A stretch of 56,415 nt of DNA, from the NCBI GenBank assembly GCA_964479125.1, contig CAYZJK010000002.1, positions 1 through 56,415 of the forward strand, read 5' to 3'. The DNA comes from an uncultured Candidatus Saccharibacteria bacterium. GTDB lineage: Bacteria; Patescibacteriota; Saccharimonadia; Saccharimonadales; Saccharimonadaceae. Under the pieces are notes generated by a model that searched no databases, was not told where the DNA came from, and saw nothing but the letters and a program-made list of their open reading frames with translations. A program made the position numbers and the translations under genes. Below, piece after piece: positions 1-39,135 of the stretch (position 1 is its first letter; each line of letters starts with the position of its first letter).

Positions 1-734
1 AACCAGAACCAGAGCCGGAACCCTACCCCACAGCGACTGCAGCTAGTTGCTTTACATTTGACTCTAGTACTGGAACTATTACAGACTACTCAAACAATGC
101 TGAATGTCCGAAGGTTGTCATAATACCGAAAGAGATAGGAGGTAGGGCAGTGACAAGTATAGGGAGTTATGCGCTTAATTATAACCAGCTCACTAGCGTC
201 ACTATACCCAATTCCGTGACAAGTATAGGGAGTGGTGCGTTTGAGTTTAACCAGCTCACTAGCGTCACTATACCCAACTCCGTGACAAGTATAGGGGATT
301 ATGCGTTTCGTGATAACCAGCTCACCAGCGTCACTATACCCAATTCCGTGACAAGTATAGGGTATACTGCCTTTCGTAATAACCAGCTCACTAGCGTCAC
401 TATACCCAATTCTGTGACAAGTATAAGGGGTTCTGCCTTTCGTAATAACCAGCTCACTAGCGTCACTATACCCAATTCTGTGACAAGTATAGGGAGTTAT
501 GCGCTTGGTTATAACCAGCTCACCAGCGTCACTATACCCAATTCTGTGACAAGTATAGGGAGTGATGCGTTTCGTAATAACCAGCTCACTAGCGTCACTA
601 TACCCAATTCCGTGACAAGTATAGAGAGTTATGCGTTTTATAATAATCCAAACATAACCTGCCGCATACCAAATTCAGCACCATATAACCCGCTAAGTCC
701 TAATATTAACTGCTCTTCTATCGAGAGGTACTAA
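1..734 (+). CDS. BspA-type leucine-rich-repeat surface protein, 5'-truncated by the window edge
   Basis: Frame 3 is open from nt 3 ([54 protein letters not shown]...), so the GTG at 150 in the ORF track is internal. There are seven full 22-aa repeats [22 protein letters not shown] plus degenerate flanking copies, typical of BspA/LRR_5-type repeats. Stop TAA at 732-734. Confidence 0.8.
183..644. repeat. Tandem 66-bp coding repeat, 7 near-identical copies (LRR units), with degenerate copies flanking at about 117-182 and 645-700
   Basis: AACCAGCTCAC(T/C)AGCGTCACTATACCCAA(T/C)TC(C/T)GTGACAAGTATAG... restarts at 183, 249, 315, 381, 447, 513 and 579, an exact 66-nt period. Differences cluster in the last ~20 nt of each unit. 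Confidence 0.95.
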
Positions 735-1176
735 TCCTCTCTGACTCTAGAGAGAATATTCAGCAGATCGGCATCTCTGCCTAGGCTCTAGGATAAGAAG
801 CCGAATTCCACCTAACTACATTGCCTTTAATATCATCATCCTACCGTCTCTTCTTACGCTATAAGTAGAAGAGATACAATAGATTAACCCGTATGCGTAA
901 AGTCCGCTTGTTTCAAAAAAGCTCCAATCGGTTACTTTTTGAGAGATTTCATGACTCCATAATCTGGCAACTTGATCTAGAGATATTTATCTCATCAGCC
1001 CTGGTGGATTGGTAGTTTTGAAGGGTTCGGCGGCGCTTAATAACACCTCGTATATGTTGCGTGATGCCTGGCGTACCAACATTATTTTTAATAACCATCT
1101 CTGTAAATTGAGTTGGTTATTTTATACCCTGAATGAAATGCAAAACCTATAGAGCGTATACGTAACACTGTTGTGC

Positions 1177-1185
1177 TGATATACT
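1177..1185 (+). promoter_or_regulatory. Extended -10 box TGATATACT, 8 nt upstream of the ABC ATPase ATG (leaderless-type arrangement)
   Basis: TGATATACT at 1177-1185. There is no Shine-Dalgarno sequence between it and ATG 1194. Confidence 0.4.
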
Positions 1186-1193
1186 AAAATCCA

Positions 1194-2108
1194 ATGACAG
1201 CTGCGATATCAGTTAAAAACCTTATTAAAAACTATGGCGAAGCGCAGGTAGTGCGCGATATTTCGTTCGAAGTACCGACCGGGTCTGTCTTCGCTTTTTT
1301 AGGGACAAATGGAGCAGGTAAAAGCACAACTATCAACTGCATAGTGACGACACTGCAACCTACAAGTGGAGCGATTTATGTTAATGGAAACAAAATCGGC
1401 AAAGACGACGCAGTAATTAAAAAAGATATAGGCGTGGTTTTCCAATCGTCGCTTTTAGATCCCCTTTTAACCGTTCGCGAAAACCTTGCAGTCCGAGGCG
1501 CTATGTATATAGGTGCATCCAGTATGAGAAATCGAATTGTTGAGCTTGTTGAGCTTGTTGATATGGCTGAATTTATTGATCAAAGATATGGAAAGCTATC
1601 AGGCGGACAAAAGCGTAGAGCAGATATCGCTCGAGCACTCCTCCATAACCCATCGATACTCTTCTTGGATGAACCAACAACAGGCCTTGATCCCCAGAGT
1701 CGTGAAAATGTATGGCAACTTATACGCACTCTGCAGAAAAAACAGGGAAAGACCGTATTTTTGACTACCCACTACATGGAAGAGACCGAAAATGCAGACA
1801 TGGTAGCTATTCTTAATCGAGGCAGAATAGTTTCAACAGGAACCCCCCAATCGTTACGCGCCGATTACAGTAGGAATATACTTCGATTAGATGCTAAAGA
1901 TAGCGGATTATTGGCTGATGCGTTAAAGAAACATGCAATACCGTTTTCTATAATCGAAGGTGGTGTATTTGAGATAAACCCAGAATCAAGCCATGTAGCG
2001 CTTGAAATGTTAAATACATTGAACCCCTTTTTAAAAGACTTTGAGTTTAGGCATGGGAATATGGACGATGTATTCCTAAAACTGGCCGAAGGGAATGTTT
2101 TACTATGA
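1194..2108 (+). CDS. ABC transporter ATP-binding protein (ABC-2/DrrA-type exporter)
   Basis: Walker A GTNGAGKST, ABC signature LSGGQKRR, Walker B ILFLDEPTTGLD, H-loop TTHYM. The stop overlaps the next start (ATGA at 2105). Confidence 0.9.
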   Translation: MTAAISVKNLIKNYGEAQVVRDISFEVPTGSVFAFLGTNGAGKSTTINCIVTTLQPTSGAIYVNGNKIGKDDAVIKKDIGVVFQSSLLDPLLTVRENLAVRGAMYIGASSMRNRIVELVELVDMAEFIDQRYGKLSGGQKRRADIARALLHNPSILFLDEPTTGLDPQSRENVWQLIRTLQKKQGKTVFLTTHYMEETENADMVAILNRGRIVSTGTPQSLRADYSRNILRLDAKDSGLLADALKKHAIPFSIIEGGVFEINPESSHVALEMLNTLNPFLKDFEFRHGNMDDVFLKLAEGNVLL

Positions 2109-2980
2109 ACAGCCTAGTAGTACGGCATCTGCGAGTATTCTTTAGAGATAAAGGAAGTGTATTTTTTGCACTTCTCTCGTCGATAGTAATGTTCGCATTG
2201 TATATATTCTTTCTCGGAAGCATTCAGGCCGACAGTCTTCAAGACGGAGTAGCTACGCTATCGAATAACCTAGCGAATAATTTCGTTAACTCGTGGGTAT
2301 TTGCCGGTATTATAACTATCACAGCTGTTACAACGAGTCTTGCGGCTTTTAGTGTATTTATTAGCGACCGCGCAGAAGGGAGATTGAAAGATTACGCAGT
2401 TTCACCAATAGCCAGGTGGAAACTAACGCTCAGCTATATAGTTGCTTCAATTATTATTTCATCGCTACTTACGATACTCACTGCTGTACTGGGGCAAGTA
2501 TATCTACTTTTCTCCGGTGGAGAATTTATTGGTCTCGAAAATTCATTACAGTTGATACCACTTCTCGTTTTCCTGTCTGCAGTATTTTCATCATTCGCGT
2601 GTCTTATTACGACATTCGTTAAAACGTCGGCCGCCTTCACCTCTTTGAGTATTATTATCGGAACAAGCGTTGGTTTTCTGGCGGGTATTTATGTGCCGGT
2701 AGGCTCCCTGCCATCTGGTGTAGCTAATGTAATAAATACACTTCCCTTTGCGCAGGCAGCGACGCTTACCAGGCAACCTTTTGCTACTGATACTTTAATG
2801 CAAATAAGCCAAGGTAGCGGTGCGCAAACGGAGGCGCTAAAAGACATGTATGGATTTAATATAGCCGTTGGGGATGCCACTCTCTCGACGATGACGTTAC
2901 TATTGCTTCTAACTGGCTTGGCTGTAATCTGCTTGGCAATTGCTGTAGTTAGAATGGCGAGGGTCTTGAAAACTGTCTAG
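2105..2980 (+). CDS. ABC-2 type transporter permease
   Basis: 291 aa with about six hydrophobic helices, translationally coupled to the upstream ATPase. Confidence 0.8.
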   Translation: MNSLVVRHLRVFFRDKGSVFFALLSSIVMFALYIFFLGSIQADSLQDGVATLSNNLANNFVNSWVFAGIITITAVTTSLAAFSVFISDRAEGRLKDYAVSPIARWKLTLSYIVASIIISSLLTILTAVLGQVYLLFSGGEFIGLENSLQLIPLLVFLSAVFSSFACLITTFVKTSAAFTSLSIIIGTSVGFLAGIYVPVGSLPSGVANVINTLPFAQAATLTRQPFATDTLMQISQGSGAQTEALKDMYGFNIAVGDATLSTMTLLLLLTGLAVICLAIAVVRMARVLKTV

Positions 2981-3034
2981 TCATTGACTATGGAGGTTTT
3001 GAGTTCTCCCAGTAGTGTATACCATACATGAAAC

Positions 3035-3060
3035 AGCGTCCTCTAAAGGGGCGTTTTTTC
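3035..3060 (+). terminator. Rho-independent terminator after the ABC operon
   Basis: AGCGTCC-tctaaag-GGGCGTT forms a 7-bp stem including G-U pairs, followed by a T-run (3054-3059). Confidence 0.5.
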
Positions 3061-3075
3061 TTTTGTTTATTTAGT

Positions 3076-3120
3076 ATATGTTCAAATGAACACTTATTGA
3101 ACATATATTGAACATATAAT
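3076..3120 (+). promoter_or_regulatory. Operator-like repeats overlapping the putative fic promoter
   Basis: ATATGTTCAA (3076-3085) is the inverted copy of TTGAACATAT, which occurs twice as an 11-bp tandem ATTGAACATAT (3096-3106 and 3107-3117). A TATAAT hexamer lies at 3115-3120. Confidence 0.4.
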
Positions 3121-3177
3121 TATGGATTCGATTATTTTAAATCAACCAAGTTATAAAAATTTCCTAAAACAGAGTTT

Positions 3178-4485
3178 ATGGCTAAATTCCTTTCTGGCGG
3201 TTCGAGCTCTTTGAATGCCTATATTAGTAGTATAGATAGTCCAAGGTACTTATTTTGGGATAAAGCAATGTATAAACAGGTTCCTGGTGATTATACATCT
3301 CAAGAAGCATGGCTTACAGCAAAGCTTCTTAGGAAGATTAAGTCTGTGCCCTCTCCAGTTATTGATGAGGATGGCCAACCTTATACGTACAGTAAGCTAT
3401 CTCATTTCGAGAGATCTTTACATATGATTGACCTTAAGATAGGTGGCAAGTTTATCGTAGGTAGCAATACAAGTGAAGAAAAGCAAAAGTTTATGACTAG
3501 GGGAATAATTGAAGAGGCGATAGCGTCTAGTCAGTTAGAAGGTGCCAGTACAACAAGAAAATATGCCAAAAAAATGATTGCAGAAAAAAAGAAACCTAGG
3601 ACAACTTCTGAAAAGATGATTTATAACAATTATATTACCATGTCTGCCATAGAGGAGGAGTTTAAAAACAAAGAGTTGTCAGTAGAGTTACTACTTGAAA
3701 TGCATACTATGCTTACTCAGGATACACTGGATGATCCTGCGGATGTCGGTAGAATACGTAACGAGGGTGACTTAATTAGTGTTATATACCAAGAAGAAAT
3801 TGCACACACAGCTCCAGATAGAGATTTTGTAGACGAACATTTAAAAAGACTAATTAGCTATGCTAATGATGATAGTGAATTTATTCATCCTATAATCAAG
3901 GCTAGTATATTACATTTTTGGATGGGGTACCTGCACCCTTTTGCAGATGGAAATGGTAGGATGGCTAGATCTATATTCTATTGGTACCTTTTCAAGAACG
4001 ACTACTGGGGTGTAGCTTTTGTACCTATATCTATGATTCTCAAAAGGGCTAAAAAACAATATACATATGCCTATATTTATTCTGAACAGGATAATAAGGA
4101 TTTGACTTACTTTATTGATTTCTCCATTCGTAAGATAATACTAGCCCTTAGTGAGTTTGAAGAATATGTAAAAAGTCTTGAAGATGAGAATAAATCTATA
4201 GATGTTTTAATCGGTAGAAATATCACTCTAAATGATAGACAGAAACAGATAATCTACTTTTTAATTAAGGATGTAACTAACTTCACTTCAGAGCTATCGC
4301 ATCGTACTATGAATGGAATAGCTAGAAATACTGCTCGTTCAGATATTAAAAAACTCCTCAACGAAAACTTAGTAGTTGCACAGAAAGAAGGTAGGACTGT
4401 TAAGTATTACGCCTCTGAAAAGCTTATAGAGATGGCTGGAGGGAAGGTTGATGAGCTACAGAGAGTGGATGGGGGGTTATGCTAG
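3178..4485 (+). CDS. Fic family protein (AMPylase-type, class II autoinhibited) with a C-terminal winged-helix-like domain
   Basis: Canonical Fic motif HPFADGNGRMAR (HxFx[DE]GNGRxxR). Upstream inhibitory-helix motif SSQLEG ([ST]xxxE[GN]). C-terminal ~90 aa (RQKQIIYFL...ARSDIKKLLNENLVVAQKEGRTVKY) looks like a wHTH. Confidence 0.85.
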   Translation: MAKFLSGGSSSLNAYISSIDSPRYLFWDKAMYKQVPGDYTSQEAWLTAKLLRKIKSVPSPVIDEDGQPYTYSKLSHFERSLHMIDLKIGGKFIVGSNTSEEKQKFMTRGIIEEAIASSQLEGASTTRKYAKKMIAEKKKPRTTSEKMIYNNYITMSAIEEEFKNKELSVELLLEMHTMLTQDTLDDPADVGRIRNEGDLISVIYQEEIAHTAPDRDFVDEHLKRLISYANDDSEFIHPIIKASILHFWMGYLHPFADGNGRMARSIFYWYLFKNDYWGVAFVPISMILKRAKKQYTYAYIYSEQDNKDLTYFIDFSIRKIILALSEFEEYVKSLEDENKSIDVLIGRNITLNDRQKQIIYFLIKDVTNFTSELSHRTMNGIARNTARSDIKKLLNENLVVAQKEGRTVKYYASEKLIEMAGGKVDELQRVDGGLC

Positions 4486-4634
4486 TAATGATGATTCTTC
4501 CCAGCAGGTTTTGTTTGACGAAGATATTCTGTAATTAGCTTATGACTCATATATGAGCTAGATAGATAGCTGTCTATAACTATATTATTTTGATTGATTC
4601 ATTACATTAAGTGCAATAGGTGGAGTTGATAAAT

Positions 4635-5021
4635 TTAATCTTCCACGGATGACAGTAGTGCTTCCCATAAATCTTCTTCACTATCAAAATCAAGGCTGCT
4701 ACCATACATTTGGTCGCGAACTTTTTCTCTGTAGAGATCTAAAGTTAAAGGACTGAGGCGGTAAGCTTTATTCGACTTAGAGTTAGTAAACTTAATTGTT
4801 CCATCTGACTCTAAATTTGTATCAGAAATGATAAATTGGCGATACTTCTCGGTATCGAACCACTCGATATAATTTTCTCGAACTTTAACATCGACAGCCA
4901 CTAGTACTGTGTCGTCAGGTTTTTCGTCCTGAGAAACTGACTCTACGTAGTAAGCAGGGTGGGTAATAATAGGCTCTAATTCCTGATCTTCACGGTTTAT
5001 TTTATTACTCATGTTCTCCAT
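4635..5021 (-). CDS. Hypothetical small acidic protein, partner of the upstream 509-aa ORF
   Basis: 128 aa with about 29 D/E versus 14 K/R. It starts 1 nt (ATG 5021) or 10 nt (ATG 5012) after the stop of the 509-aa ORF, and an AGGA/GGAG purine tract overlaps that stop. No motif recognised. Confidence 0.7.
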   Translation of the reverse strand: MENMSNKINREDQELEPIITHPAYYVESVSQDEKPDDTVLVAVDVKVRENYIEWFDTEKYRQFIISDTNLESDGTIKFTNSKSNKAYRLSPLTLDLYREKVRDQMYGSSLDFDSEEDLWEALLSSVED

Positions 5022-5022
5022 C

Positions 5023-6552
5023 CTATTTAATTAGCGCTTTCTGTTGTTCATTGGTCTCGAGGTATTCAAGATCTTCTTCATTTAAAGGAATGTGCAGACG
5101 TTCAGGTGAAGTGGTTGAAAGTTGGTATTCTAAGAGGCTATCTAACTCAGTCCATCCTTGAGCCGAACGGTTGTAATATTCATCCTCACGGCGAGGAGGT
5201 CGACCGTTGGATATATCGATTATCTGAGACACTTTATCGGCAACGTGAACAAAGTCTTCTACCAGTATATTGTTCACTTCTTCAACACCCTGGTTTTGTA
5301 GCATTAATACAACCGATCGTTTAGCGGCGATATCTGGTACGGCGATACCAGCAATTGATTCAACAGCTATGCCAGTACGATACATTTGTTCGTTAGTACA
5401 TAATTCTTTATAGCCAGTATTATTTAAGTGTTTAAATAATTGATCCGGTGTTAGGCGACTGTTGAACACCTCCGGGTCGGTAGACCCTTTCATATCGTCG
5501 TCATAGGCATACCAGTCAGTACGGTCGGTAATATCAGGCTTGATGGCTAGGATGATGTCGTTTTTATATATTGAGGCGTCATTCCTCTTATCGGCCACGC
5601 TCTTTTCGGTTACAGTTCGTACAAATACGTTATCGGCGCCGCCGGTCTTAAGGTCAAGTAGGGAAGAGATGCCAATGGTTTTAACACCACGCTTAAATCG
5701 TTCGTGAGTAGACATGAGGCCATTAGTTAAAAGTTTAGGTAGAACAGATGGGTCAGCTACCTTATGTAGAATTCCAAACTCACCATACTTTTCTTGGTAC
5801 TCCTTACTCTTACCTGGTTGGGTGATGGTTGTGTAGCCTGGAAAAACTTCTGTACGAGTAAGGTTCTCAGGTGTGGGGTGTTTAATTGATTTAAGTTCGT
5901 CGATTCGGTGGTGCCAATTGTATCGGGCTTTCTTATACTCTTGCTCCGCATCTAGATTAGGATTAGTAAAAGCTTCCTCGATGCCAAGTAGGTTAGTCAT
6001 GGCGTCGTCTAGTCTGATGCCAATTTCTTCATTGGTTAGTCGATCACCCTGTTCATTAAGTTCTGGTAGTTCGATATTTACGACGCTGTTTACAGTTCGC
6101 CAGTCCGGACTTTTGGTTGCGATGGCAATGCTTAGGCCGTTTGCGTTGACAAAAATAGCTTCAGTGGTAGGAATGTTGATATCGTCCTGTCCGTCTTTGC
6201 TTTTGGCAAAGTAATTAAACTCTGTGATTTGAGTGTTAGGCAGTTCGGATAGTTTATCGTGAATCTGATTGTAAGCTTCGGCGGTAAGCTTGAAGGTTAA
6301 CTCTGTGCCTCGCTCAGTCTTAATAAAGCTTAACTGTTGGCCTTCGATATGATTACTATCGCCAACTATTGTTTCCTTAGGGCTAATTGTTTCACCGTCA
6401 ATGGCTTTGTATTCAAGGTTGTCTAGAGCATTCTTAGCAGCTTGGGCGCTTTCGGTGAGTGGAAGGTGATCGTAGGTATTGAAATAGTCTCCATGTCTTG
6501 GAGAGTCGTCTCGGTCCATTAGATCGGCATAGCTGTTAAGTTTTTCAGACAT
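5023..6552 (-). CDS. Hypothetical 509-aa cytoplasmic protein; central region has an ADP-ribosyltransferase-like motif order (tentative)
   Basis: Long uninterrupted ORF with no signal peptide or TM. Motifs FGILH263KVADPSVLPKLLTNGLMS, GADNVF310VRT and CTNE388QMYRTGI have the spacing seen in H-Y-E ART folds (DarT/Tpt1/PARP-like). This was matched by eye only. Confidence 0.75.
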   Translation of the reverse strand: MSEKLNSYADLMDRDDSPRHGDYFNTYDHLPLTESAQAAKNALDNLEYKAIDGETISPKETIVGDSNHIEGQQLSFIKTERGTELTFKLTAEAYNQIHDKLSELPNTQITEFNYFAKSKDGQDDINIPTTEAIFVNANGLSIAIATKSPDWRTVNSVVNIELPELNEQGDRLTNEEIGIRLDDAMTNLLGIEEAFTNPNLDAEQEYKKARYNWHHRIDELKSIKHPTPENLTRTEVFPGYTTITQPGKSKEYQEKYGEFGILHKVADPSVLPKLLTNGLMSTHERFKRGVKTIGISSLLDLKTGGADNVFVRTVTEKSVADKRNDASIYKNDIILAIKPDITDRTDWYAYDDDMKGSTDPEVFNSRLTPDQLFKHLNNTGYKELCTNEQMYRTGIAVESIAGIAVPDIAAKRSVVLMLQNQGVEEVNNILVEDFVHVADKVSQIIDISNGRPPRREDEYYNRSAQGWTELDSLLEYQLSTTSPERLHIPLNEEDLEYLETNEQQKALIK

Positions 6553-6745
6553 TTTTTAATTTTTGTTTTTTGATTTATTAGTGAATTAAACTTATCATAA
6601 AACATAAGCTTTGTCAAATTCAGGCGTAGTAAAGTGCCTATTTTAGGCTGAAATTCTTGATCTTTTGACTACTAGGTGAAGTACTAAGCCTATATCACCA
6701 CTAAATACGAAAATGTCCATATATAGCGTAGCTGTTTATCCACAG

Positions 6746-6860
6746 ACACTATATCTATGCACTACTGTAATTGTGTATGTAGTGAAAAGTACCCCATAAA
6801 TGCTTGAATCTATATATCTAGTGGAGTATTATTAAGTGTAGACACTAAATACGCAGTGTG
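6746..6860 (+). promoter_or_regulatory. nrdA promoter (TTGAAT-17-TATTAT) with three NrdR-box-like AT-rich palindromes
   Basis: -35 TTGAAT at 6804-6809, 17-nt spacer, -10 TATTAT at 6827-6832. Box A is ACACTATATCTATGCA (6746-6761). Box B on the complement is CCACTAGATATATAGA (6809-6824), exactly filling the spacer. Box C is ACACTAAATACGCAGTGT (6842-6859). A-B centre distance is 63 nt. Confidence 0.5.
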
Positions 6861-6960
6861 AAAAAGATAAAACAAACATTTTTGGCGGGATAGAGAGGCC
6901 GTGAGGTCTTTTTTTATACCCAGAATGGGTGTGAGACATAAGTTTTAAGAGGGGGACTTA

Positions 6961-37023: not shown

Positions 37024-39135
37024 ATGGCCGGCTCTAGACAAAAAATTATAGAAACACTGCAGAGTGTCGACACTGTACTTGTTACTGTTGGAAAGAACCC
37101 AACCGTTGATGAACTATCTGCTGCACTAGGTTTAACAATCTTCTTAAATGAATCTGGTAAACATGCCACTGCGGTCATGAGTGGTGATATACCGCCAGCT
37201 ATCAGCTTCCTAGAGCCAGAGAAGACTTTCGAAAACTCAGTCGACAGCCTGAGGGACTTTGTTATTGCATTAGATAAAGATAAGGCTGATCACCTTCGCT
37301 ATAAATTAGTTGAAGATGTCGTTAAAATCTATATCACTCCATACCGATCAGTCATTACTGAAAAAGACCTTCGCTATAGCAAGGGTGATTATAACGTTGA
37401 ATTAGTTATTGCTATTGGTGTTAAAACTCGCGATGACCTAGATAAGGCCTTAGCTTCTCACGGCCGCATTTTACATGACGCGACTGTAGCTACGATTGGT
37501 AATGAAGAGAGTAAGCTAGGTGATCCAGACTGGTATGATCGAAACGCTAGTAGCTTAAGTGAAATGGTTACAACTCTTATCTCTAAGATTCCGTCTGACG
37601 ATAAGAAGATTGATAAGCGTGTTGCTAGCTCACTCCTAACTGGTATTGTTTCAGCGACCGATAGGTTTAGTAATGATAAAACTACACCAGAGTCACTAAC
37701 AGTTGCAGCCGAGTTAATGTCCTATGGTGCTAACCAGCAGTTAATTGCCCTTAAGCTAAGGGAAGGCTCAAAGCTAGACATTGAACCTGAAGATGGCTCT
37801 AAGAAGTTAACTCGTGACCTTGAGAAAGAAAACCGAGACAATCGCAAGCAAAAAGATAATCAGAATCAAAACAAGAAGCAGAAGAATAAAGATAAGCCAA
37901 AGGATAAGACTAAGTTCTCAATAGATCACTCAGGTGATAAGGAAAAGGAAGAGGTTAAGGAAGAATCTCAGCCAGTAGAAACTACTGCTCCTAATCGTAT
38001 TGGTTTAACCGAGGACGGTGAGTATGATCCTGCTGCAGCACTAGATGAAGCTCTACGTATTTCTGAACAGAAACGAGTCGAAGCTATCAATCAGGATAAA
38101 GACCAGCTAGCAGAAGAGTTAGCTCATGGCCTAGAGCAGTCTAGTAGTGCGCAAGAGACCAACGCTCCTGAACCTGCTCAGCCTACACAGGAAGAGTCTC
38201 CAGCTATCGAGGAGGCTCCACAGCCAGAAACATCAACTTCAGAGCCGGTAGTCGAGCCTACGTCAGAAGCATCTGCTCAAGAGCCAGTCTATGAGCTACC
38301 TTCACAAAATGAAGAGACTCAGCCGCCAATGCAGACTGAGGAGCCTGTACAGCAGTCAGTTCAAGAGGTAGAGAGCGCTTCAACACTACCTCCTGTACAG
38401 TCGACTCCTCAGATTGGTGAGGCTCGACGAAATAATGCACCAGTTGATAAGTTTGACTCGGATGAGGGTCCAGCTTTCGGAGGTGTATTAAACGCTACTA
38501 CTGAGAGTGCTGCCGAGGCGAAAAGGTTAGCTGAAAGTGAAATGCGTAACCGCACAATCTTAAGTCGATCTGCTCCAGGCGCATCAGCTCAAGAGGATCA
38601 GCAACCAAATCCATCACCTTTCAACAGCACAATGGCAGGCAGTGAAGAACCGACTATGCCAAGCTTTGAAATGACTCCACCTCAGAGCTATATACAGCAG
38701 TCTCAGCCACAAGTTTTTGAACCAGCTAGCAATGATACGTATCAGGGACATACAATTGTTCCACCAACTCCAACTGGCACGCTTGAGGAAATTGATCGTC
38801 AGCACCGTCAGTCTGTAGAGGATGCAGAGGTGCGAGACATGTTTGAGCCGTCATCGCAGCCGCTACCAACTCCGTCTGTTCCGATTGGGCAGCCAGCCGG
38901 TACGGTTGAAGCGCCTAACACTCCGCCGCCGCCACCAATGCCTGACTTTTCTCAACTGCCTCCATTGCCAACTCAAATGCCTGACTTTTCTCAGGTACCG
39001 GCTCAAATGCCAGCTGACTCTCCTCAGCCTGGTCCGGATAACCTAGGTCAAATCCTGCCACCAGCTCCACCGGCACCACCTCAGAGCCAGCAGGCTAATG
39101 ATCTTGGACAATTCCAGATTCCAAACCAGCAGTAG
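37024..39135 (+). CDS. DHH-fold (NrnA-like) domain protein lacking the DHH catalytic signature, fused to a ~450-aa low-complexity tail
   Basis: N-terminal 250 aa align by eye with the NrnA DHH domain (ASSLSEMVTTLI; LLTGIVSATDRFSNDKTTPESLTVAAELMSY). The DHH motif is replaced (IAIGVKTRD) and there is no DHHA1 domain. The tail has a K/N/Q-rich block, then E/P/Q/S/T-rich sequence. Confidence 0.7.
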   Translation: MAGSRQKIIETLQSVDTVLVTVGKNPTVDELSAALGLTIFLNESGKHATAVMSGDIPPAISFLEPEKTFENSVDSLRDFVIALDKDKADHLRYKLVEDVVKIYITPYRSVITEKDLRYSKGDYNVELVIAIGVKTRDDLDKALASHGRILHDATVATIGNEESKLGDPDWYDRNASSLSEMVTTLISKIPSDDKKIDKRVASSLLTGIVSATDRFSNDKTTPESLTVAAELMSYGANQQLIALKLREGSKLDIEPEDGSKKLTRDLEKENRDNRKQKDNQNQNKKQKNKDKPKDKTKFSIDHSGDKEKEEVKEESQPVETTAPNRIGLTEDGEYDPAAALDEALRISEQKRVEAINQDKDQLAEELAHGLEQSSSAQETNAPEPAQPTQEESPAIEEAPQPETSTSEPVVEPTSEASAQEPVYELPSQNEETQPPMQTEEPVQQSVQEVESASTLPPVQSTPQIGEARRNNAPVDKFDSDEGPAFGGVLNATTESAAEAKRLAESEMRNRTILSRSAPGASAQEDQQPNPSPFNSTMAGSEEPTMPSFEMTPPQSYIQQSQPQVFEPASNDTYQGHTIVPPTPTGTLEEIDRQHRQSVEDAEVRDMFEPSSQPLPTPSVPIGQPAGTVEAPNTPPPPPMPDFSQLPPLPTQMPDFSQVPAQMPADSPQPGPDNLGQILPPAPPAPPQSQQANDLGQFQIPNQQ

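Follow-up and report, generated by a model that had tools for sequence, protein, structure and literature searches.

A predicted DarT-like ADP-ribosyltransferase and its translationally coupled small partner in a Saccharibacteria bacterium, a probable toxin and immunity protein

A two-gene operon on the minus strand of the window (the whole stretch of DNA that was analysed, 56,415 nucleotides) probably encodes an ADP-ribosyltransferase (ART) toxin and a cognate immunity protein that would bind it. The operon and the sequences around it are laid out as follows.

5023 to 6552, minus strand: large gene (509 aa), predicted ADP-ribosyltransferase toxin in the form of a stand-alone two-domain module
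4635 to 5012, minus strand: partner gene (125 aa; 128 aa, 4635 to 5021, from the ATG at 5021), predicted binding ("structural") immunity protein
5010 to 5025, minus strand: coupling junction, with TAG at 5025-5023, AGGA at 5024-5021, GGAG at 5019-5016, ATG at 5012-5010 and an alternative ATG at 5021-5019
6553 to 6960, no strand assigned: divergent intergenic region, presumed promoter region of the operon, common to the operon and nrdA (6961-9366, plus strand)

The two ORFs are exactly as a preliminary description of this DNA had given them, and they are translationally coupled, as it had also proposed. The junction reads ...AAA TAG GATGGAGAAC ATG, and the AGGA tract overlaps the stop codon of the large ORF and lies 8 nt ahead of the ATG at 5012. 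This ATG is the likelier start of the partner, because partner homologues begin at the second ATG, giving 125 aa. Across 57 pairs, the gap between the toxin gene and the partner gene was mostly -17 to +50 nt. In the intergenic region, which we presume from its sequence and position to hold the operon promoter, GC falls to 30%. Minus-strand hexamers resembling promoter elements occur at 6862-6835 and 6777-6748, but hexamers of this kind are no more frequent than chance would give (9 against 7.2 expected); promoter and terminator scans gave counts near those of shuffled sequence. The neighbours of the pair in the window are RNR genes, Fic and an ABC transporter, with no prophage DNA-packaging module, and no tRNA, Rfam family or mobile-element mark was found near the pair.

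Neither protein matched any model of Pfam, NCBIfam, PADLOC or PHROGs in hmmscan, in keeping with the remark in the preliminary description that no known family could be assigned by eye, and PDB sequences searched with phmmer and with a profile in hmmsearch yielded no usable match. The same description had called the pair an orphan, which it is not: both proteins belong to large families, the large protein having relatives in at least 727 clusters at 50% identity and the partner at least 149 relatives. We found no description of this ART family in Saccharibacteria in the literature. An AlphaFold2 model of the 509-aa protein (pLDDT 86.9, pTM 0.83) was divided into four parts.

6391 to 6552, minus strand: N-terminal leader, residues 1-54, acidic, partly of low confidence, no export signal
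5890 to 6390, minus strand: N-domain, residues 55-221, mixed beta/alpha, always ahead of the catalytic core
5185 to 5889, minus strand: predicted DarT-like ART catalytic core, residues 222-456, recognised by Foldseek, BFVD, comparison of the consensus with Pfam, and conserved residues
5026 to 5184, minus strand: C-terminal tail, residues 457-509, acidic, of low confidence, not conserved

The leader (pI 4.43) has pLDDT below 50 at residues 1-21 and no hydrophobic segment, and longer CPR homologues carry a homologous extension of 150-450 aa at its position; in the tail (pI 4.22) pLDDT is about 51-63, and homologue matches stop near residue 455. No signal peptide or TM segment was found in the 509-aa protein, as had been noted before, and a Kyte-Doolittle scan likewise showed no TM-like stretch in 75 of 77 family members. 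The N-domain, in which CPR homologues keep F87, K88, R152 and W213, also stands immediately ahead of the core in the MuF proteins of Firmicutes (hhalign prob 98.3%, E = 2.4e-14), and may serve in substrate recognition. With hhalign, nothing in common (prob <=0.4%) was seen between the MuF region and either the long N-terminal extension of CPR members or the N-terminal part of the Actinobacterial proteins.

The assignment of the large protein as an ART is supported by structure prediction and by comparison of the family with Pfam. When the model was compared with the PDB by Foldseek, the best eight matches were all DarT (prob 0.93-1.0, E from 1.7e-4), with TM scores of 0.44-0.59 when normalised on stand-alone DarT chains and 0.31 on the DarT-DarG fusion 7omu, and Tpt1 appeared at rank 23 among the PDB fold matches. 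Matches in BFVD were DarT-sized uncharacterised viral proteins from giant viruses, an iridovirus, a baculovirus and phages. The consensus of the CPR family also matched DarT (PF14487) best among the Pfam families, but at E = 0.013 and 15.7 bits, below the gathering score of 22.5; the alignment is partial and C-terminal, covering positions 144-196 of the 201 in the DarT profile, and E388 lies inside the aligned stretch. Among 40 family members, one gave a weak DarT match (E = 0.014). The window protein itself gave nothing against the DarT profile at E <= 10, no match to ART profiles in Pfam and no match in PADLOC. Thus the fold proposed in the preliminary description, an H-Y-E type ART like DarT and Tpt1, was recovered in the structure search that it had suggested, while its suggested profile search had a divided outcome, failing for the window protein and giving a sub-threshold DarT match for the family consensus.

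The motifs quoted in the preliminary description are present at the residues that it named, and their codons are located as follows.

5764 to 5766, minus strand: codon of H263, proposed beta-1 histidine of the NAD+ site, in strand 259-265, which is followed by helix 268-277
5623 to 5625, minus strand: codon of F310, proposed aromatic residue of the H-Y-E triad, in GGAD-x-V-F-x-R within strand 308-315
5389 to 5391, minus strand: codon of E388, proposed catalytic glutamate, in N-E-Q-M-[FY]-R-x-G-I, first residue of strand 388-392

Conservation of the first and last of these had been proposed as a check, and it held fully for only one of them. E388 is invariant across the CPR, Firmicutes and Actinobacteria sampled, whereas H263 is present in 60/60 CPR and 6/6 Actinobacterial proteins but in 0/12 Firmicutes MuF versions, which have A, S, T or C at position 263 and W, F or Y at position 262. 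In DarT1, an aromatic residue on beta-1 has been reported in place of the histidine (PMC11543638). The third position, F310, is F in 59 of 60 CPR proteins (Y in the remaining one), in 12/12 Firmicutes and in 6/6 Actinobacteria. Further residues kept with F310 and E388 in all three lineages are R285, S296, D300, G304, G305, R312, R344, D346, Y348, D353, N387, M390 and R392, and the window protein retains R285, D300, the GG pair at 304-305, F310, R312, R344, E388 and R392. The proposed H, F and E assignments rest on conservation, on position in the secondary structure, where the model has all three at places expected of an ART fold, and on the one partial profile alignment. A reading as an R-S-E type enzyme (R285, S296, ExE) was also considered and rejected; the residue two places ahead of E388 is neither Q nor E, and every fold neighbour is of DarT type. 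Both the missing H263 of the phage/Firmicutes branch and the missing ART profile match of the window protein speak against an ART toxin.

DarT is thus the best structural match of the core and the only Pfam family touched by the family consensus, with the proposed elements in the same order (beta-1 His, aromatic strand, and a late strand that opens with the catalytic Glu), and it is likewise encoded beside a cognate neutraliser. On the other hand, there is no significant sequence match to DarT, and the 509-aa protein is about twice as large, with an obligatory extra N-domain. The neutraliser in DarTG is a macrodomain (DarG) or NADAR, while here the presumed neutraliser is a downstream, PH-like protein predicted to be non-enzymatic, and the eraser associated with relatives of this family is also different, being an arginine-type ADP-ribosyl-arginine hydrolase (ARH).

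Such a Tri1/DraG-like ARH was found within 2.5 kb in 24 of 56 CPR loci (about 40-43%). The ARHs of CPR relatives match Tri1 best (NCBIfam NF041672, E = 4.7e-94; PDB 6dre, E = 1.6e-44), although their score of 315 bits lies below the Tri1 equivalog cut-off of 490. In two of these relatives, L003 and L008, the Tri1-like ARH is at 4955-5911 and 8373-9404, respectively. No ARH was found by tblastn in the 56-kb window, and none was seen in 80 viral loci. The presence of ARHs beside CPR relatives suggests, from sequence, an enzymatic immunity against arginine ADP-ribosylation, and an N-linked acceptor, probably protein arginine. A similar arrangement is known from Tre1-Tri1, where an ARH confers immunity to a type VI ART toxin, but Tre1 is unrelated in sequence to the large protein, there is no type VI context and the window has no ARH. 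Bxa-Bsi-BAH of Bacteroides stercoris, an experimentally tested MuF ART toxin system (PMC11699363), resembles the CPR relatives in having both an ARH-family hydrolase and a small partner that is not an enzyme; this likeness is one of layout, and the window locus differs in having no adjacent ARH. The window core also differs from MuF polymorphic toxins, Bxa included, in being DarT-like, with no match to the Pfam ART-toxin models, including those of Alt/VIP2 type.

Since the erasers associated with relatives are arginine-type ARHs, a DNA target like that of DarT is not to be assumed. It can still be considered that the pair is a toxin with its immunity protein, the toxin modifying nucleic acid in the manner of DarT and Tpt1, at a base of DNA or RNA, at a 2'-OH or at a phosphate end, rather than protein arginine. 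This would fit the closest structures, DarT and Tpt1, the viral fold neighbours, which include baculovirus ORF32 and iridovirus 422L, the invariant arginines R285, R312, R344 and R392, and the basic cores of Firmicutes and Actinobacteria (median pI 8.1 and 8.7); moreover, ARH-family enzymes can strip phosphate-end ADP-ribose from RNA and DNA (PMC11833690). However, the associated erasers are nearest to the arginine-specific Tri1 and to DraG, the CPR cores, that of the window included, are acidic to neutral, and base-linked ADP-ribose is reversed by macrodomains and NADAR but not by the ARH enzymes tested (PMC11833690, PMC11543638). No macrodomain was seen beside the pair in the neighbourhoods covered by ARH and HMM scans and by precomputed Pfam listings. 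We therefore consider a nucleic-acid target unlikely.

NADase activity, countered by a small immunity protein that binds the enzyme, is found in several toxins with an ART fold. The large protein could accordingly be thought of as an NAD+ glycohydrolase that degrades NAD+ with no macromolecular acceptor, its partner being a binding inhibitor, and the lack of an eraser enzyme near the window pair and near all phage versions is consistent with this. We find such a toxin highly improbable, because an ARH that recurs, tightly adjacent, in about 43% of the CPR loci implies a conjugate that can be removed, and because the conserved extra N-domain, always found with the core, seems to point to recognition of a macromolecular substrate.

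The AlphaFold2 model of the partner (pLDDT 81.9) has six strands and two helices, and Foldseek related it to PH/EVH1 domains with prob values reaching 0.98 but TM scores of only 0.3-0.45, a weak similarity. In this model C-terminal helices follow a PH/EVH1-like beta-sandwich; the fold is non-enzymatic and not that of a hydrolase, and it agrees with the preliminary description in that the partner is not a macrodomain. Partners of CPR type, the window's included, and of phage type form two homologous groups (hhalign prob 97.2%), and D33, W51, D53, R58, F75 and Y84 are invariant among CPR members. The strong acidity ascribed to it earlier was seen in the window, where the HMM-aligned part has 28 D/E, 13 K/R and pI 4.29, but does not hold as a property of the family: the median pI of Firmicutes partners is 6.5. 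In CPR, partners (median pI 4.8) and toxin cores (4.84) are equally acidic. An acidic DNA-mimic partner was accordingly rejected as a family feature, acidity being lineage-specific. Profile scans gave no match to HTH or RHH in the partner. The antitoxin of a classical type II toxin-antitoxin system is usually encoded upstream, binds DNA and autoregulates, whereas here the partner is downstream and PH-like, with no HTH or RHH. The partner is probably a binding immunity protein; it may instead act as a chaperone or adaptor.

The preliminary description had suggested that co-occurrence of the two genes be examined, and it proved to be near-obligate. The partner is encoded directly downstream of the toxin in 44/56 CPR loci, the misses being mostly split genes or tandem copies, in 11/11 Firmicutes loci and in 75/76 viral loci. 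Distances among cores and among partners are correlated (r = 0.93, permutation maximum 0.24), with the partner diverging faster than the core (0.67 vs 0.57), and in Actinobacteria another conserved family of small ORFs stands downstream of the core. Tandem arrays of paralogues and one fragmented copy were also seen; such arrays and fragmented copies are usual for conflict genes.

In Firmicutes, MuF, Rho_N and then the two-domain module follow one another within one protein, encoded in terminase-portal packaging clusters; the MuF domain (PF04233), which the window protein lacks, is carried by three relatives from Firmicutes, L062, L065 and L070, the first of them from a prophage of Thermoanaerobacterium sp. 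DL9XJH110. The MuF polymorphic toxins known from temperate phages have a small immunity ORF downstream (PMC5576092). The Firmicutes and viral relatives resemble them in having a C-terminal module followed by an ORF of <150 aa, and the window pair in having a 125-aa ORF coupled to the toxin stop codon, although this pair lies outside a prophage and its large protein is not a MuF fusion. Together with the near-obligate co-occurrence, this use of the module as C-terminal cargo of prophage MuF polymorphic toxins favours the toxin and immunity reading of the preliminary description.

The CPR copies are chromosomal and lie among housekeeping genes in varied contexts, the pair is widely kept in very small CPR genomes, and no CPR copy was found on a viral contig. 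These copies also have no export signal, a combination that fits an endogenous regulatory role as well. In such a case the pair would be a reversible ADP-ribosylation switch comparable to DraT/DraG, in which the ART marks a protein of its own cell, the ARH removes the mark and the partner is a regulator, adaptor or substrate; the neighbouring ARH is indeed of DraG/Tri1 type, and the invariant partner R58 of CPR could be an acceptor or pseudo-substrate. The likeness to DraT-DraG of nitrogenase regulation is limited to an ART with a DraG-type hydrolase in some relatives, whereas the window protein matches no DraT model and the family has a third, obligatory small partner, and is phage-borne, multi-copy and subject to partner replacement. 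A switch is difficult to reconcile with the use of the same module and partner as phage MuF toxin cargo with no ARH in any of the viral loci, with the tandem multi-copy arrays and the fragmented copy, with a partner that evolves faster than the enzyme and belongs to a different downstream family in Actinobacteria, and with more than half of the CPR loci, including the window, having no ARH nearby. We consequently give it a low probability.

If the operon does encode an ART toxin and a binding immunity protein, as we think probable, the large protein would work as a two-domain module of N-domain and DarT-like core: H263, F310 and the GGAD loop would line a cleft of the core that takes up NAD+, and E388 would serve to transfer ADP-ribose to an acceptor macromolecule. 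Coupled translation yields the small PH-like protein, which would bind and block the enzyme in the producing cell. In many CPR relatives a Tri1/DraG-type ADP-ribosyl-arginine hydrolase would provide a second, enzymatic safeguard, which the two-gene version of the window lacks. Phages of Firmicutes carry the module as a fusion with the MuF head protein, so that it would presumably be packaged and injected. In the CPR organism of the window it would be a cytoplasmic protein, most likely of a toxin-antitoxin or abortive-infection module, or else an effector delivered by another route.

A bolder form of the last possibility, which we hold to be quite unlikely, is that the CPR branch is an effector system of these episymbiotic ultra-small bacteria, in which a DarT-fold enzyme has been re-targeted to protein arginine, the PH-like protein is a pseudo-substrate inhibitor acting through the invariant R58 of WFDTxxxR, and the enzyme, delivered independently of a signal, manipulates or kills the host bacterium that it enters. 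If true, this would explain why the module is retained in reduced genomes, often in several copies, and one toxin-immunity module would be common to CPR symbionts and the heads of Firmicutes phages.

The pair would add a widespread, undescribed ART family and an undescribed family of PH-like partners, and would show a DarT-like fold outside DarTG, with a neutraliser that is not a hydrolase and probably an arginine-type eraser. The MuF phage-head version would offer a tractable Firmicutes prophage system for studying target and mechanism. Gene numbers are very low in Saccharibacteria and other CPR bacteria, and most of the genes have no assigned function. Because these genes are so few, a conserved and often multi-copy toxin-like module would be a testable lead on how these organisms interact with hosts, phages or competitors.

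The two-gene pair proposed in the preliminary description was confirmed, since both open reading frames (ORFs) were found on the minus strand of the window, and the motifs and residue numbers assigned to the large protein were correct on checking. The features of the pair are as follows.

5023-6552, minus strand: large ORF, 509 aa (ORF call in the window)
4635-5021, minus strand: small ORF, 128 aa from the first ATG (ORF call in the window)
5025-5023, minus strand: TAG stop of the large ORF (sequence)
5024-5021, minus strand: AGGA, overlapping the TAG stop (sequence)
5019-5016, minus strand: GGAG (sequence)
5021 and 5012, minus strand: candidate ATG starts of the partner (sequence)

The junction reads AAA-TAG-GATGGAGAAC-ATG. 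Because close homologues of the partner are 125 aa long and begin at the second ATG, we took 5012 as its start. Neither protein matched any Pfam, NCBIfam, PADLOC or PHROGs model or any PDB sequence.

An AlphaFold2 model of the large protein, built on 87 sequences, was confident (pLDDT 86.9, pTM 0.83) and says that its fold is that of an ADP-ribosyltransferase (ART). In a Foldseek search of the PDB, the best eight matches were all DarT DNA ADP-ribosyltransferases (7omu, 8baq, 7omy, 7yk3, 7omw, 7omv, 7omx), with probabilities of 0.93-1.0, E-values from 1.7e-4 and a TM-score of 0.44-0.59 when normalised on stand-alone DarT chains and 0.31 on the DarT-DarG fusion 7omu; Tpt1, an RNA 2'-phosphotransferase, came at rank 23. 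Among predicted viral structures, the top matches were uncharacterised DarT-sized proteins of giant viruses (Tupanvirus, TM 0.68), iridovirus 6 (422L), a baculovirus and phages. An arthropod-virus 'ORF28 family' has been described as related to DarT-like ARTs (PMC9503650). DarT (PF14487) was also the best Pfam match of the CPR-core consensus (E = 0.013; 15.7 bits, under the 22.5-bit threshold), with profile positions 144-196 of 201 aligned to the NEQMFR...GITEVNG stretch. As the catalytic glutamate of the 207-residue E. coli DarT1 is E152 (PMC11543638), the segment containing E388 lies at the place expected of the DarT catalytic glutamate. The ART core first read by eye is thus supported by the structural matches and by this sub-threshold profile match.

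In the model, H263 belongs to strand 259-265, after which comes a helix, F310 belongs to strand 308-315 and E388 opens strand 388-392, matching the order of ART elements proposed earlier. Across 78 distinct aligned cores, R285, S296, D300, G304, G305, F310, R312, R344, D346, Y348, D353, N387, E388, M390 and R392 were common to CPR, Firmicutes and Actinobacteria. All 60 CPR cores and all 6 Actinobacterial ones had H263, but position 263 was A/S/T/C in all 12 Firmicutes cores, where position 262 was W/F/Y, comparable to DarT1, in which the nicotinamide-stacking aromatic residue is shifted onto beta-1 (PMC11543638). Thus, F310 and E388 hold throughout the three groups, while H263 is not universal. 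We infer with good support that H263, F310 and E388 are equivalent to the ART active-site residues. All the universally conserved core residues are retained in the window protein, so its sequence bears no sign of inactivity.

By sequence comparison, the conserved unit exceeds the ART core and comprises an N-domain plus the core: residues 55-221 form a domain that also directly precedes the core in Firmicutes proteins (hhalign probability 98.3%, E = 2.4e-14). Longer CPR homologues (600-1150 aa) carry an additional N-terminal extension, homologous across 22 loci, for which no relation to anything known was found. The window protein is in essence the smallest version: its N-domain and ART core are preceded by a short acidic leader and followed by an acidic tail that is short and poorly conserved. 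A Kyte-Doolittle scan gave no TM-like hydrophobic segment in 75/77 family members.

The pair had been described as an orphan, but both proteins have families. Relatives of the large protein numbered more than 425 in a 90%-clustered database and formed at least 727 clusters at 50% identity (E <= 1e-3); those of the partner were just six by single-sequence search and at least 149 by a profile made from partners at related loci. Named relatives of the large protein come from Saccharibacteria and from Azam-, Yanofsky-, Vogel- and Colwellbacteria. When each species was represented by one genome, 75 loci were recovered, including Firmicutes (Thermoanaerobacterium, Dethiobacter, Oscillospiraceae, Ruminococcus, Halanaerobiales) and, more remotely, Actinobacteria (Actinoplanes, Streptomyces, Mangrovactinospora). 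Some genomes hold several copies: one Candidatus Vogelbacteria contig (JACQCV010000034.1; locus positions 140-10262) has four tandem large genes (939, 1024, 454 and 689 aa) and two partner genes, and two other contigs of the same MAG carry further copies. In one complete Saccharibacteria genome (CP064992.1), the large gene is present only as three fragments of 203, 107 and 133 aa (locus positions 7956-9324), no partner was detected at this locus, and the copy appears to be decaying.

The Firmicutes proteins (~1130 aa) have an N-terminal Phage_Mu_F domain, a Rho_N-like motif and the module at the C-terminus, and their genes directly follow terminase and portal genes. The 80 relatives found on viral contigs, mostly ~1140 aa, all showed 25-36% identity, as the Firmicutes versions do, and none was of the CPR type. 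MuF polymorphic toxins have a variable C-terminal toxin domain and an immunity ORF of <150 aa downstream, and head packaging and injection have been proposed for them (PMC5576092); the Firmicutes and viral versions have the same architecture. The middle region of the Firmicutes MuF proteins (residues 361-607 of the protein at 5430-8819 of locus L062) resembles mycobacteriophage proteins annotated 'minor capsid protein and ADP-ribosyltransferase fusion' (E = 4e-26), so that ART-type domains of two distinct kinds may be present in these polyvalent head proteins.

The partner was modelled (pLDDT 81.9) as six strands followed by two C-terminal helices, and Foldseek matched it to PH and EVH1 domains; the probability reached 0.98 but the TM-score was just 0.3-0.45, so we would call the predicted fold PH-like and no more. 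The partner belongs neither to the macrodomains, which had been excluded earlier, nor to the ARH (ADP-ribosylglycohydrolase) or NADAR enzymes. The predicted fold says that inhibition would be by binding, not reversal. D33, W51, D53, R58, F75 and Y84 are common to CPR partners. The strong acidity noted initially holds in CPR (median pI 4.8, against 4.84 for CPR toxin cores) but is not a family trait, Firmicutes partners being near neutral (6.5).

Co-inheritance, a check proposed in the preliminary description, was borne out by HMM scans of all ORFs in fetched loci with enough flank. The partner was directly downstream in 44/56 CPR loci, 11/11 Firmicutes loci and 75/76 IMG/VR viral contigs; the CPR loci without it were mostly frameshift fragments or internal tandem-array members, and the sole viral exception had a 133-aa ORF overlapping the stop. 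The gap was mostly -17 to +50 nt, with 1-4 nt overlaps common (57 pairs). CPR-type and phage-type partners are homologous (hhalign probability 97.2%, E = 4.7e-11). Pairwise distances of core and partner were correlated (r = 0.93; permutation maximum 0.24, n=1000), and the partner diverges faster (mean distance 0.67 versus 0.57). In Actinobacteria, another small ORF family follows the core (conserved in 5/6 loci, 31-54% identity), so the partner appears to have been exchanged while the toxin core stayed the same. These proteins (590-770 aa; Actinoplanes, Streptomyces spongiae, Mangrovactinospora and others, L078-L083) have the core at the C-terminal end, and an overlapping ORF of 817-965 aa without Pfam match lies upstream. 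At two Saccharibacteria loci (L056, 9263-10267; L076, 8336-9340), a 334-aa ORF without Pfam match follows the large gene where the usual partner would be expected, and it may encode another kind of partner or have no connection with the large gene.

An ARH gene (PF03747) lies within 2.5 kb in 24/56 CPR loci, usually convergent and right after the partner, and divergent upstream in those named relatives that are nearest to the window (50% identity). No ARH was found in the 56-kb window, where a divergent nrdA occupies that spot. The neighbouring ARHs are closest to Tri1 and DraG, which are ADP-ribosyl-arginine hydrolases (NF041672, E = 4.7e-94, under the equivalog cut-off; PDB 6dre, 1.6e-44). 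Judged by this subtype, the acceptor should be N-linked and is most likely an arginine of a protein. When ADP-ribose is linked to a nucleic-acid base, macrodomains or NADAR take it off, and the ARH enzymes tested to date do not (PMC11833690). A DNA target should not be assumed for the large protein. A nucleic-acid target, to which the DarT and Tpt1 fold neighbours and the many invariant arginines of the core would point, is still alive as a rival despite the ARH subtype. On the simplest account, an arginine-type eraser would supplement toxin and immunity protein in part of the family. In the experimentally shown Bxa, Bsi and BAH, a prophage ART toxin has two immunity proteins, a small one that binds and an ARH1-like enzyme (PMC11699363).

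Other neighbours were also seen. At an oral Saccharibacteria locus (L008, 9585-9998), the gene for a 137-aa protein that weakly matches the CdiA_C toxin domain adjoins the ARH and is followed by HD and NYN domain genes, and together they may make up a small cluster of conflict genes. In the window, an intact gene for a 435-aa Fic-domain protein (3178-4485, plus strand; Pfam Fic 1.3e-17, PADLOC SoFic anti-phage model 1.4e-41) lies convergent to the partner gene and has a GC of 30-39% versus 42-44% in its surroundings; in the near-identical locus L001 the corresponding stretch is broken up into three ORFs (146, 151 and 166 aa). The Fic gene may be a separately acquired defence-type gene. A 703-aa ORF (37024-39135, plus strand) lies in a patch of ~51% GC, the window maximum (background 40-45%). 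ARAGORN found no tRNA gene in the whole window (1-56415), nor did any Rfam family reach its gathering score there. The window seems to lie on one replichore because its GC skew is positive nearly throughout.

Most simply, the large protein would be an ADP-ribosylating toxin and the partner its cognate immunity protein, acting by binding. The phage MuF fusions, partner replacement, multi-copy arrays and faster-evolving partner say that this is a conflict system. An endogenous DraT/DraG-like switch would suit the CPR copies, which are chromosomal, in housekeeping contexts and without export signals, but it fits the phage data poorly. The initial interpretation as a toxin/immunity or defence pair is supported overall, by the ART fold, the partner co-inheritance and the MuF toxin architecture in phages. 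The catalytic family, the obligatory N-domain and the PH-like partner family were absent from the curated libraries and literature searched, and so was any combination of a DarT-like fold with both a non-hydrolase partner and an arginine-type ARH. The system itself is of a known kind, in which an ART toxin is paired with an immunity protein in the style of polymorphic toxins, and in the Saccharibacterium the module could act as a toxin-antitoxin or abortive-infection module, or as an effector against a host or competitor.
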